From Stegastes partitus (taxonomy: Eukaryota), in NCBI RefSeq assembly GCF_000690725.1, contig NW_007578739.1:60997-77212 (forward strand): DNA of 16,216 nt, given 5' to 3'. Shown in pieces: positions 5,541-14,581 of this stretch (positions within the stretch are counted from its first letter, which is position 1; each line of letters starts with the position of its first letter). The position numbers and the translations under genes were made by a program. A model generated the notes under the pieces. That model saw only the letters and a list, made by a program, of their open reading frames with translations, was not told the origin of the DNA and did not search any database.

Positions 5541-5666
5541 GGCGAGCGCTCGTTCTTCCTGCAGCCTGGCGAGCAGCTTGAAAACGGCATCCAGGATGTT
5601 TACGTTCTGTCGGAGGAGGAAGGTTTGGTGCTGCGAGCCGTCGAGGCCTTTAATGACACCCAGGAG
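5541..5666 (+). CDS. mvp: MVP coding exon 7 ([42 protein letters not shown])
   Basis: Acceptor ccctccgtcag|GGC at 5539-5540 and donor GAG|gtgaga at 5667. Matches human [34 protein letters not shown]. Confidence 0.9.
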
Positions 5667-7327
5667 GTGAGAATCACCACCCAGCCTCGTTACTGGGGTG
5701 TAAACAATTTAATAAGGCACAAGTTTGTCTGAAAATTGCAGCCCTGAATCTTAACAATGACTTCTTTTGATCGAGTGCTCAGTGTAGAGACCTAAAAATT
5801 TGTCATATTCAGCTTTCTAGAAGTCCTTAAAAAGATCATGGGTGGTATGTTGTTCCATCAGGAAAGATAACCAAATGTGTTCCTAAATTCATGTGATATG
5901 TCATGAGAGTCAGTTTATTCTACGTGTCTCGTTTAAAACTGCGCCAAAAACAAATGGTTTGCTCCAGATTCTGCAAAAAACAAAACATTTTGAGCTCCTG
6001 GGTGACTCGGCTGTGAACAACAGTCTCATGACCAAAACTCAGAGTGTTCGGTTGAACTGCAGGCAGTGCTCCAACTCCTGGTGGTTCTGGATGATTCCTG
6101 ACGTTTCCAGAAGGTGAATGAGGTCGACAAAAGTCCACTTTATCAGCAGTCTTTCTCCAACAGGAGCAGAAAGTTAAAAGCTTTCCATCTCTTTCATGCT
6201 CAATAGATCTTGGCAACTTTCAAGTTTATTATTTATTCATGAGTTAATTTATGTCTCCATGTTGAATAAGACTTACATTAAATAAACTCGGCTTAAACTA
6301 AGATTAGCTTCTTATGCTGCAGGTGGAATCTGTTGAACCCTGAAACTGGCCGGCGGATTTGAAAGACGTGCTCTTTTTTAAAAAAACGCAATAAAACAGC
6401 CGTAAAGTGCGAGAACGTTCTACTTCCAGTCCTTTAAAGGATCTTGTGTAAGATGTGGAGGAGCAAGTTGTTGGACGATGCATTCAACACGGGGAAACAT
6501 CTTTCTTCAGCTGACATGCACATAATAGGTTTCTGCAGCTCCACCAAACACAGTTTTTCATGTTTTACAACCTTCGTTTGTCTTCGTGCGTCTCTGTGTG
6601 GAGCTGCTGGACCAGAAAGGAATGAAGCTCAGGGAGGAGCTGGTGTGTAAAGATCGTCCTGTGCAACCGGTCGATCTGAGAAGACAGATTAGAAAAGCAA
6701 ATGCTGTCTTTTCACAGGGGTGTGCTTTGCTGAAAGACCACCGGCAGGTCTATAGAGACTGGTATGAAGCTGCAGGTGTGTCTGTGGACTCTGGGGTTTA
6801 AAGGTGACACCACACCTGCTGTGGTTGGGTTTGGCTCTGCTGCTGCTGTTTATCTGGTTGGTTTCCAGGAGTTACACCTTAAAACGGCAGCAATGAGGTC
6901 AGAGGATTGTTCGCAAACAGCAAGACAAGCAGGTACAAAGTCTGAGCTATAAATTCATTTACAAACTATCAAGCAAACATGTCATTCACATCGTCCCTTT
7001 CCACACAGCAGCAGAAACTTAATTAAATGAGGCGGACATGTGAAGCTAGAATATGGTAGAAACGGGCACTGCCATCTTCTTCTGGAGGCGTCCTGTACAA
7101 TCAGGAGTGAACAGCAGCAGTTTTAGCATTTAACAGTTGAATATGTCTGTCCGGAAATAACATGATGGATACCTGTGATGTCATTCTGTAAAAACAACAA
7201 GTAGAGATCAGTTTTGAAAATAATAGTTGCAGTCACCACATACCAGACACTTATAATGCAGTCCTGACATAATTGTCTGAGGAAGGATGACAAATTCACC
7301 TTTTAATCTGATAAAAGGTCAAATAAA

Positions 7328-7400
7328 TGTAGTGGAGTAAAAAGTCAAAGTCGCCTAAAAGCCTCAAAAGTTACTTGAGTACTTGTTACTTAGCAGCACT
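7328..7400. repeat. Possible fragment of a fish interspersed repeat or MITE (gtagtggagtaaaaagtcaaag...aaaagttacttgagtacttgttactt)
   Basis: The 'agtggagtaaaaagt' and 'tacttgagtacttgttactt' motifs resemble repeat terminal sequences common in teleost genomes. This is a memory-based impression only. Confidence 0.3.
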
Positions 7401-7436
7401 GGTCTGAATGAGGTTTGGATGAAGCTGCTTTGTGTT

Positions 7437-7735
7437 CTTCACTTCCCCATCTTCCCTCCTAACCTGGCTAACCCATCTTCCCCCAACTCTTCTTCTTCTT
7501 CTTCTTCTCTTTTTTCTTATTCTCTTCCCTTCATCCTCACATCGTCCACCCTTTTCATTTCTTCACGTTGTTTTCCTTTCATGATTCTTGTTTTACTCAG
7601 TGCCTCCCTCCATCCCCCTCTCCTTCTCCTTCTCCTCCTCCTCTTCCTCCTCCTCCTCCGCCGCCGCTCCGATGCATCGCCACGTTAACCCTTCTTTCCG
7701 TCCTCCTCCTCTCTCTCCAACGCTCTCTCTGCCAG
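7437..7735 (+). repeat. Extended CT-rich polypyrimidine low-complexity tract, including (CTT)6 and (CTC/TCC)n runs, immediately upstream of exon 8
   Basis: Direct reading. It continues uninterrupted into the exon 8 acceptor. The ORF-track peptides here (poly-S, P and L) are artefacts. Confidence 0.9.
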
Positions 7736-7948
7736 CAGGAGGAAGAGGAGGACGAGGAGGCCCAGCAGGAGGAGAGGGCCAAGCGCTCCCGGAGGAGCGG
7801 TGTCCTGCGTCGCCCCGGAGACCGCTGGATGCTGCGCGGTCCCATCGAGTACGTTCCCCCCGCCACGGTGGAGGTGGTGCTGAGGCAGCAGGCCATCCCG
7901 CTGGACGAGAACGAGGGCATCTACGTCCGGGACATCAAAACTGGAAAG
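7736..7948 (+). CDS. mvp: MVP coding exon 8 ([71 protein letters not shown])
   Basis: The 3' two-thirds matches human [43 protein letters not shown]. Donor AAG|gtccga at 7949. The acceptor sits at the end of a roughly 300-bp CT-rich tract (..ctctctctgccag|CAG) and is a CAGCAG tandem acceptor at 7733-7738. The exact 5' end is less certain; in-frame alternative AGs lie at 7738 and 7765/7768. Confidence 0.75.
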
Positions 7949-7973
7949 GTCCGAGTTAGAAAATGTAGCGCTG

Positions 7974-8295
7974 TTTTGTTGTGTTTCAAAACCAAAGACT
8001 TTACATCAGAGATGTCCTGATCGGATCTCAAAGATCAAGATGGGTGATCTTTAAACTGATTGGTATCAGCTTGGGATGTTCTGATCTCTTTATTTGCCTC
8101 TGATTAATTTCCTATAGATTGCCTCTACTAGTTTGCTGCGAGCTGTATTAGCTCTGCCTCGCACTGTTTAGTCCTGTAGAAACCAGAGGAGGTGGTAGCT
8201 CCATGTTGGCAAGCAGAGCGTATTGTCAAGGTTTAGGTAGTAAAGAGTAAACACCATGACAAAGGCTTCTGTGTGGCGTAATGAGCTCAGCTCTT
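7974..8295 (+). repeat. Tandem-duplicated repeat unit A in intron 8
   Basis: Aligns at roughly 80% identity with 8318-8678. Shared blocks include aaccaaag..tttacatcagagatgtcctgatcggatctcaaagatcaagat, tatcagcttgggatgttctgat, and ccagaggaggtggtagctccatgttggcaagcagagcgtattgtcaaggtttaggtag...caccatgacaaaggcttctgtg. Confidence 0.8.
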
Positions 8296-9336: not shown

Positions 9337-9675
9337 GTAACTCACAGACACTGAGCTGACTGTACACTCGATATTGAAATTACATAAGAAAGATGATTAA
9401 CCGTAGCAGTTTACTGGAATAAATTCAGAATAAAAAAGATTTTCAATGTTTGCAACTTCTCTTAGTTTTTGCTTCAGTCACGTTTGTCACCGCTGTGGCT
9501 CATTTTTCTCTGCAACATAAAGTCCTGCAGCTCTGTGGACACACAACAACCACAAAGAAGGAGAGACTCAGAAATGTGTTCTGTGTAGAATGACTCAGAA
9601 TGACAAAACAAGTAGAATTTCATTGATCGTTTGTGGTACAAAAATTGCAACCAACCTTTAACCTCGAACTCAGTC

Positions 9676-9710
9676 TTCTTTTTCTTCTTCTTCTTCTTCT
9701 TCTTCTTCTT
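9676..9710 (+). repeat. (CTT)n microsatellite, about 10 pure units, forming the polypyrimidine tract of the exon 11 acceptor
   Basis: Direct reading: cttctttttcttcttcttcttcttcttcttcttcttcag|G. Confidence 0.95.
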
Positions 9711-9713
9711 CAG

Positions 9714-12349: not shown

Positions 12350-13406
12350 GTACGTTAACACGAGCTCACTAAAGTAGACGGCCAACAGCAAGCTTCACAT
12401 GAAAAAGAGATTTAAATGTTATTTTAAACCTCAGTTAATAAAAACTCCTGAAAAGCCTAAAAACTCTCCAATATGGTGAAGCATCCAAAAAGCTGTAGCT
12501 GGCATTAACCAGAGAGGAGAGTTTGTGTCGGCAAATACTCATACAATCAGTAAACTCTCATGTATTTGGCAGTTATGATCAGGACTGATGCTCTTACTCA
12601 GTGGAAGTGAAAAAATAATGATAGTTTCTAATATTTTTATGGCTTTTTGGCTTCTTTTGTCCTCTCAGGTGTGAGTTTTTATTAAAAACCTGACTGTGTA
12701 AATAAGAAATGATGCATTTAATCACTGAAGTTAATCAGCGACAGACTGTGATCATCAAAAGAAGAATCTTCTATTCATTATATTATATGGAATAAAAAAA
12801 CAACAACCATGGCGTCATGTAAACAAACCGGCATTTAAAGGGTTAAAATCCTAAATATCAATGAGTGTTTGGTAATTATGATCAGAACTCACGGAGAGCA
12901 AAAGAAATACGCAACTGAAACTGAGAAATAATCATAATACATAACATTTTTGGCGTTATTGATGTTTTGTCCTGAAGGACTTTTTTAAATTGCTGCCTGA
13001 GTGCTAAAGGAAGTGAGAACAGAGCAGCACAGTCTGTCCAACTCTAACCTAGTCAACAGGTTTTTATTACAGAATCCAAGATGACTTTTCCTCTGGGTTA
13101 GCAAAAAAAATCTTCTATCATTAGAAAAAAACAAAGAACGGAGGGTTTCGTGTCTGTAACTGTTTGTAGGTTTAGTTTAGTCGAATGTAAAGTGACTTTA
13201 AGTAAAGATTATATTCATGGTGGGTTATTTTCTCGATGGACCAATCAGCTGTTTGGTCTGAAAATGATGAAGGTGTGCTTCAGTGTTTCCTCAAATGTCT
13301 CGTTTTATCCAAACATGTTCAGTTTACTGTCACAGAGGAGAAAATAAGCTGCAGCCACAGAACTGAAGCTGTCGTAGTTTTAATCCAAGCCTGTGTGCGT
13401 CTGTAG

Positions 13407-13595
13407 GAGGCGGAGCTTCAGCGGCTGATGAAGGCTCGTGAGCAGGAGCTGAACTACAAGAAGGAGATAGACCGACTGGAGGTGGAGAAGCAGGAACGTC
13501 TGGCTCAGATCGAGAGTCAACGCTTCAGCCAGCTGATGGAGAGTTTGGGCAGCGACACCCTGAAGGAGATCGCCAGAGCCGGACCAGAGCTGCAG
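13407..13595 (+). CDS. mvp: MVP coding exon 15 (EAELQRLMKAREQELNYKKEIDRLEVEKQERLAQIESQRFSQLMESLGSDTLKEIARAGPELQ)
   Basis: Acceptor tgcgtctgtag|GAG at 13405-13406 and donor CAG|gtgctg at 13596. Matches human [62 protein letters not shown]. Confidence 0.88.
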
Positions 13596-14461: not shown

Positions 14462-14581
14462 CTGAAGATGCTTCAGGCTCTCGGTCTGAAGTCGACTCTC
14501 ATCACTGACGGCTCGTCGCCCATCAACCTCTTCACCACCGCCAACGGCCTGCTGGGGGCGCTGCCGGGCCAGGGCCAGTGA
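14462..14581 (+). CDS. mvp: MVP terminal coding exon 16 ([39 protein letters not shown]; stop TGA 14579-14581)
   Basis: Acceptor ttgatgtccgtcgtgcag|CTG at 14460-14461. Aligns residue-for-residue with human [38 protein letters not shown]. It ends earlier than the human C-terminal tail. Confidence 0.85.

Follow-up and report, generated by a model that had tools for sequence, protein, structure and literature searches.

An MVP gene spanning the window

The window, a 16,216-nucleotide stretch of Stegastes partitus DNA (contig NW_007578739.1, positions 60,997 to 77,212), contains a complete MVP gene of 16 exons on its plus strand, as determined by tblastn and a splice-site-aware model. A human MVP sequence, used only as a guide, served as the tblastn query with which the 16 coding segments were located; the whole model is 69% identical to this guide sequence, which is not a database record. 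The predicted product is open, with 865 amino acids from an ATG at 939 to a stop codon at 14579-14581. An in-frame ATG at 906 is a second start candidate and would give a product of 876 amino acids, making two candidates within 906-941. In a Pfam search of the 865-residue model, PF01505 scored 213 bits and PF11978 scored 172 bits, and PF17794, PF17795 and PF17796 were also matched; Vault, Vault_2, Vault_3, Vault_4 and MVP_shoulder were all far above the Pfam cut-offs. The fragment encoded by exons 7-9 aligned with the rat and human MVP chains of the PDB over residues 304-479 (E = 1e-67). These domains and the match to MVP chains bear out the gene identity given by an earlier annotation of this DNA (the sequence-only reading).

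Within the same gene, the exon 15 acceptor carries a second NAGNAG motif, TAG/GAG at 13404-13409 (ctgTAG/GAGgcg, phase 0; a slash marks the splice boundary here and below). If used alternatively it would add or remove one Glu, and it belongs to the HAGGAG class, which is rarely alternatively spliced. Elsewhere, a (TTC)n repeat at 9675-9713 serves as the pyrimidine tract of the exon 11 acceptor, a (GT)n microsatellite occupies positions 1-47 at the start of the window, and positions 505-716 are T-rich with a strong AT skew and form the longest AG-free stretch of the window. A scan of the whole window against Rfam gave zero family matches.

Our analysis centers on the boundary between intron 7 and exon 8 (Table 1). 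Exon 7, whose protein ends in ...AFNDTQE and whose donor is GAG/gtgaga, encodes strand β2 of MVP repeat R7 and the first 8 residues of the loop that follows. Exon 8, with its donor AAG/gtccga at 7949, encodes the remainder of the R7 loop, strand β3 and the sequence onward. The end of intron 7 reads ...ctctctgcCAGCAG at 7733-7738 and, in a longer reading, ...ctctctctgcCAGCAG, with CAG trinucleotides at 7733-7735 and 7736-7738.

Table 1. Features around the exon 7/8 boundary of the MVP gene, in window coordinates.
Feature	Position	Strand	Details and basis
Exon 7 of MVP	5541..5666	+	phase 0 to phase 0; tblastn and splice-site model
Intron 7	5667..7735	+	2069 nt; gene model
Two CTAAC branch-point-like motifs (cctaacctggctaaccc)	7459..7475	+	kept in two relatives; putative branch-point role
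(TCT)n pyrimidine microsatellite	7488..7527	+	intron 7; Tandem Repeats Finder
Upstream CAG	7598..7600	+	135 nt before exon 8, in frame; judged not to be the main acceptor
(CCT)n tract, 17.7 copies	7607..7659	+	Tandem Repeats Finder; complementary to exonic (GAG)n
Conserved non-coding intron tail	7668..7735	+	conserved in five group-A fish
Tandem acceptor CAG/CAG	7733..7738	+	direct reading; NAGNAG, HAGHAG class
Exon 8 of MVP	7736..7948	+	213 nt, 71 codons; protein ends in ...TGK
Acidic low-complexity run	7736..7774	+	translation; (AGG/GAG)n repeat underneath (Tandem Repeats Finder)
In-frame CAG CAG (Gln-Gln)	7763..7768	+	inside exon 8; poor acceptor candidates
Basic cluster RAKRSRRS	7775..7798	+	codon comparison; purifying selection

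For comparison we assembled ten other fish loci, which together with the window gave 11 sequences at the exon 8 acceptor. Two of these came from NCBI assemblies (Goodea atripinnis, L001, and Etheostoma spectabile, L003) and eight from Logan assemblies of sequencing runs (L002 and L004-L010). With the ORF across the acceptor (7568-8020) as query, a protein search recovered about 35-36 fish-type exon-8 ORFs, including those of Goodea and Etheostoma, which are two named percomorphs from different orders (Cyprinodontiformes and Perciformes). These protein-search matches were genomic ORF fragments only, and no fish ORF among them spanned the exon 7/8 junction; a search of the literature on fish MVP sequences or isoforms returned nothing useful. 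Acceptor strength was gauged by the pyrimidine fraction of the 17 nt upstream and by the bases at -3 and -4.

We also considered the MVP locus of Saguinus oedipus as a mammalian reference for intron positions, and rejected it as an intronless processed pseudogene with an in-frame stop. In the deposited assembly (GCA_031835075.1, L011 11054-11290), this pseudogene is annotated as protein (P0102, LRAL*PLEDGEDVEK).

Coding status and phylogenetic spread of the R7 loop

All 11 fish have a whole number of codons, between 19 and 28, from the exon 8 start to the RRPGDRW codons. All of the fish-type ORFs that cover the loop (about 35-36) have 6-14 D/E followed by 4-7 K/R, counted over the 14 residues before PGDRW. 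The acidic run varies in length between fish species, as would be expected from triplet slippage of the (AGG/GAG)n repeat that encodes it. AKRSRRS was found in 14 of the 16 sequences of group A, the percomorph-type group to which Goodea and Etheostoma belong, and other fish groups have ..KK..QRRP or VKR.R.SGV.RRP in its place.

Substitution patterns distinguish the loop from the intron before it. Among the AKRSRRS codons of five group-A sequences, we counted 25 synonymous and 4 nonsynonymous pairwise differences, and the differences included CGG versus AGG, AGG versus CGT, and a two-step serine switch between AGC and TCC. The exon core, used as a control, showed the expected excess at third positions, with 5, 5 and 25 variable columns of 47 at the three codon positions. 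The last 69 nt of intron 7 are about as conserved as the exon core, but their variable columns (4, 5 and 5 of 23) are spread evenly over the three codon positions. The synonymous excess in AKRSRRS and the third-position excess in the exon, set against the flat profile of the intron, thus indicate that the loop is coding and that the sequence upstream of 7736 is not. By orthologue comparison, then, the extra residues are exonic and coding, as the sequence-only reading had supposed: the loop stays in frame in every fish, and AKRSRRS is under purifying selection.

A contrary arrangement would make the acidic and basic residues intronic, with the true acceptor further downstream and nearer RRPGDRW, as in non-fish MVP genes. 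Several non-fish ORFs do suggest an exon that starts 4-6 residues before PGDRW (for example ...YQ/RVNRRPGDRW). However, this arrangement conflicts with the purifying selection and the unbroken frame described above. In addition, no downstream AG combines a pyrimidine at -3 with a pyrimidine tract, the relatives are devoid of any YAG there, and the deposited Goodea protein includes the loop residues. We regard a downstream acceptor as extremely improbable.

The loop is shorter in mammals. The rat and human PDB chains read ...LQPLEEGE(S/G)(E/D)E(K/R)VSHQAGD.W at this position, and between LRA. and GD.W there are 35 residues in fish versus 16 in rat, a difference of 19. About 30 non-fish MVPs recovered in the same searches likewise have few residues at the loop (for example FMDG-SEKRAPGDRW). 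The shorter mammalian loop agrees with what had been claimed for human MVP, but the accompanying claim that the insertion is lineage-specific gave way on comparison, as the acidic and basic expansion was present in all of the about 35-36 fish-type sequences and in two percomorph orders. In these alignments, the enlarged acidic-then-basic loop is clade-wide among the teleost-type fish sampled, not species-specific.

At the level of codons, the constraint on AKRSRRSG shows that the basic cluster has some role. Because this constraint is strong, the loop is not functionless, and a spacing-sensitive function is therefore conceivable. The form of the cluster does not support its description as bipartite-NLS-like: the acidic run is followed by RAKRSRRS and, five residues later, by RR, with no upstream basic cluster, so that there is one basic cluster after an acidic run and not two with a 10-12 residue spacer. 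The monopartite NLS pattern K-[KR]-x-[KR] is matched by KRSR in the window and in most of group A, but many sequences from fish groups B and B2 are without it. Furin-type R-x-[KR]-R motifs (RAKR and RSRR) are present in group A and absent from most B and B2 sequences. MVP is a cytoplasmic protein; exposure to furin is therefore not expected, and cleavage at these motifs would seem implausible.

Predicted disorder of the loop

In an AlphaFold2 model of the exon 7-9 fragment, residues 40-64 (TQEQEEEE...RRSG) form a coil with a pLDDT of ~55. Mean pLDDT over fragment residues 41-60 was 56 and 55, with values below 50 at 59-61, and the strands that flank the loop (27-33, 37-39, 65-67 and 72-75) were predicted with confidence. 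The model thus predicts an intrinsically disordered loop between ordered strands. In the known vault structures the R7 β2-β3 loop is partially disordered in all crystal forms and has been described as the most variable loop (PMC2752026). The loop had been proposed to be a surface loop between vault repeats; the AlphaFold2 coil supports a disordered surface loop, but its location is the β2-β3 loop inside R7 (PMC2752026).

The rat and human R7 β2-β3 loop (PDB 3GF5, 4V60 and 4HL8; PMC2752026) occupies the same position in the fold as the fish loop. The rat loop is also acidic (EEGESEEK), flexible or partly disordered, and held between the same strands, LRA. and GD.W. In contrast, the fish loop is 19 residues longer and carries the conserved basic AKRSRRSG, which mammals are without. 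A second comparison is offered by the acidic β2-β3 hairpins of MVP repeats R3 and R4, which, like the fish R7 loop, are solvent-exposed acid-rich insertions in the same repeat fold (PMC2752026). These hairpins are the former 'EF-hand' regions, for which PTEN/Ca2+ contact has been proposed (PMC2752026). However, the R3-R5 insertions are ordered β-hairpins, whereas the fish R7 loop is a predicted coil and is bipolar, acidic then basic.

A tandem acceptor at the start of exon 8

The CAGCAG motif is preceded by ctctctctgc, which places C7732 at -4. The proximal AG lies at 7734-7735 (boundary 7735/7736) and the distal AG at 7737-7738; both -3 bases, 7733 and 7736, are C, as in HAGHAG sites. Intron 7 has phase 0, so that an exon beginning at 7736 and one beginning at 7739 would keep the same reading frame, with a single Gln as the difference. 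The 17 nt before 7736 are 76% pyrimidine. Direct reading and the gene model thus confirm the proposed tandem acceptor, which lies in phase 0 and belongs to the 'plausible' HAGHAG class.

Such motifs are not rare. About 6% of human acceptors are NAGNAG (PMC1669710), and in published human figures 39-45% of HAGHAG sites are alternatively spliced (PMC1669710; PMC2279118). Disordered regions are enriched in such sites, and of the two AGs it is generally the upstream one that is favoured (PMC1669710; PMC2279118). The motif described here resembles the known HAGHAG tandem acceptors (TassDB) in having CAGCAG at the boundary, phase 0 and a one-Gln difference, and it resembles NAGNAGs known from disordered polar regions in that it too lies in a region that is polar and predicted to be disordered.

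A YCAG acceptor with a pyrimidine tract stands directly before the acidic run in 11 of 11 fish. The tandem motif itself was found in only three of them, the window, L005 and L009, in which the first exon 8 codon is CAG. This codon is CGT in L002 and L006, two of the three sequences most similar to the window, and CGC in the third, Etheostoma (L003); it is TAT in Goodea (L001), TCT in L010, and CAA in L004, L007 and L008. In this comparison the acceptor position is evidently kept, but the tandem motif is not conserved and appears to have arisen recently. Since the closest relatives have CGY (Arg) as their first exon codon, CAGCAG is a side effect of the change of that codon from Arg to Gln.

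Gln is found at the start of exon 8 in two fish groups, encoded by CAA (no tandem site) in one and by CAG (tandem site) in the other. CAG at the 5′ ends of exons is avoided or selected against (PMC2279118), and the CAA of one fish group, which encodes Gln without creating a second AG, fits this published avoidance. The recurrence of CAGCAG in L005 and L009 suggests that it is repeatedly tolerated, and it could have a role there.

Which of the two AGs would be used can be anticipated from published rules. The proximal AG is preferred more strongly where the pyrimidine tract is longer and the branch point further away, and a pyrimidine at -4 allows use of the distal AG (PMC3250501). Because the tract is long and the putative branch point TTAAC lies 47 nt upstream with no intervening AG, we expect the Gln-containing form to be dominant, which is a prior and not a measurement. 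With C at both -3 positions and a pyrimidine at -4, a minor isoform without the Gln is plausible.

Two further in-frame CAGs within exon 8, at 7763-7768, had also been put forward as alternative acceptors. Their hypothetical use would lead to the loss of 10 or 11 codons relative to 7736, or of 9 or 10 relative to 7739. However, pyrimidines make up only 18% and 24% of the 17 nt that precede 7766 and 7769, versus the 76% for 7736, and the sequence between 7736 and 7763 is a purine-rich GAR run. Fish alignments revealed no pyrimidine-AG (YAG) in the corresponding stretch of the relatives. These CAGs are in frame, as claimed, but the low pyrimidine content and the lack of counterparts in relatives speak against them as acceptors; they are ordinary Gln codons and not credible acceptors.

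These results bear on the suggestion that loop length is tuned by splicing. In its full form, a regulated choice among 7736, 7739, 7766 and 7769 would deliberately set the length of the loop and yield distinct vault isoforms. CAGCAG belongs to the class that is most often alternatively spliced (PMC1669710; PMC2279118), regulated NAGNAGs are known (PMC3250501), and the motif occurs in two other fish. Loss of the Gln would also place a Glu at +3 of Thr345 (TQEQ to TQEE), creating a minimal CK2-type S/T-x-x-E, as read from the sequence. However, Thr345 is not conserved (Goodea has NDAE), the CAGs at 7763-7768 have neither a pyrimidine tract nor conservation, and the synonymous, tandem-free CAG/CAA of one fish group fits selection against CAG (PMC2279118). 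Regulated mammalian NAGNAGs are conserved; in contrast, the CAGCAG described here is known from sequence alone and is not found in its nearest relatives. Conservation of the tandem motif across related species, the mark of a regulated NAGNAG, was not seen among the 11 fish, since the closest relatives have CAG/CGT, CAG/CGC and CAG/TAT. This absence argues against a conserved, selected splicing switch, and we consider tuning of the loop by splicing very unlikely.

The conserved tail of intron 7 and an upstream CAG

Intron 7 is largely unalignable between fish; only its last ~150-300 nt can be aligned, and conservation extends over the last ~130-300 nt (window 7437-7735; L001-L009). The tail includes a conserved ccgaTGCATcgccacgTTAACcc block at 7670-7692 and, within it, a putative branch point TTAAC at 7685-7689 (A at 7688), followed by 47 nt of AG-free polypyrimidine up to the acceptor. 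Of five group-A fish, four have this 47-nt spacing between TTAAC and the acceptor and Goodea has 39 nt, and none has an AG within it. Further upstream, the two CTAAC motifs stand at the head of a 176-nt AG-free stretch. Among all AG-free stretches of the window, those at 7423-7599 and 7599-7734 rank second and third in length.

Long AG-exclusion zones and distant branch points occur at the 3′ splice sites of PTB-regulated exons. The intron 7 end resembles such sites in having two extended pyrimidine stretches without an AG (176 and 135 nt), CUCUCU-type tracts and conserved branch-point-like motifs, a likeness of sequence features alone.

The (CCT)n tract of the intron (7607-7659) and the (GAG)n tract of the exon (7737-7778) are reverse complements of each other. 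In a predicted fold of 7590-7800, (CCU)n and (GAG)n are paired and the acceptor is buried (-78.5 kcal/mol, z = -2.7). The same pairing was predicted in the ten other fish, with z ranging from -2.7 to +0.5 across all 11. We rejected a selected RNA structure as the explanation of this pairing; with z reaching +0.5 among the fish, it is read as a consequence of base composition.

The upstream CAG at 7598-7600 raises the question of whether exon 8 also, or instead, starts at 7601, fed by the CTAAC motifs at 7459-7475, in which case the loop would gain 45 in-frame residues. This CAG ends the 176-nt AG-free zone and is preceded by a T-rich tract (71% pyrimidine). It is positionally conserved, and in 10 of the 10 fish with this CAG the distance from it to the main acceptor is divisible by 3 (group A: 135, 90, 126, 147 and 132 nt; groups B and B2: 93 and 90 nt). 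The interval corresponding to 7601-7735 is free of stops in 9 of 10 fish, and a protein deposited for Etheostoma spectabile treats it as coding. However, an open frame is weak evidence here, as pyrimidine tracts seldom hold stops and CCT slippage preserves length modulo 3. The interval has no codon periodicity in three independent groups (variable columns of 4, 5 and 5 of 23; 13, 8 and 14 of 40; and 5, 4 and 5 of 40; against 5, 5 and 25 of 47 in the exon). Goodea has an in-frame TAA in the interval and its deposited model uses the downstream acceptor, and TTAAC followed by 47 AG-free nucleotides is how a branch point that serves 7735 would be expected to look. We therefore consider an exon start at 7601 unlikely. 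The main acceptor is assigned from these substitution patterns and from the single in-frame stop of Goodea, and not from RNA.

The Etheostoma protein (GCA_008692095.1, L003 36789-36935, P0121) is a 'hypothetical protein' that covers the intron 7 tail (...SLCQ/RGDEDEEE). We did not adopt it as the main model because the intron tail is without codon periodicity and the deposited model is partial and chimeric. As the model is partial and carries unrelated upstream sequence, its reading of the tail is probably a gene-prediction artefact.

Interpretation

The explanation we favor as probable is that the tandem acceptor is ordinary and recent and that the R7 loop of MVP in which it lies is bipolar, disordered and shared across the clade. 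According to this model, exon 8 would start at the first AG (7734-7735) after a conserved module of branch point and polypyrimidine tract, and its first ~24 codons would encode an enlarged, intrinsically disordered R7 β2-β3 loop. The length of the acidic run would shift by slippage of GAR triplets, and the basic cluster (AKRSRRSG in percomorph-type fish) would be maintained by purifying selection. A change of the first exon codon from the CGY (Arg) of the closest relatives to CAG (Gln) would thereby have created CAGCAG. The proximal AG, which includes the Gln, would be dominant, with a minor isoform lacking one Gln plausible. In a loop that is disordered and of low complexity, the gain or loss of one residue most likely amounts to neutral splicing noise and not to a tuning device.

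In a joint reading of the same features, the 3′ end of intron 7 would act together with the first part of exon 8 as a splicing-control unit conserved in teleosts, coupled to a functional basic cluster beside a poly-acidic run. The unit may comprise two modules, each with its own branch point, pyrimidine tract and AG and with their ends at 7600 and 7735/7738, together with a (CCU)n tract that could pair with the exonic (GAG)n, and it may select between the short loop, the same loop less one Gln, and a loop with 45 more residues. AKRSRRSG, at 78 copies per vault, could then serve as a teleost-specific phospho-switch, import signal or RNA-binding belt. We regard this joint reading as quite improbable.

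If the favored explanation of an ordinary tandem acceptor is true, the motif itself matters little, being one more tandem acceptor in a disordered loop. A modestly useful output is that a fish MVP gene now has a clean model of exons 7 and 8, and it comes with two cautions for annotation: some deposited fish gene models, such as that of Etheostoma, take the intron 7 pyrimidine tract as coding, and CAG Gln codons within a Glu/Gln-rich tract should not be taken for splice sites. For the MVP family, the finding that an enlarged bipolar R7 loop with a selected basic cluster is common to teleost-type MVPs would be relevant to the comparison and engineering of vault shells.
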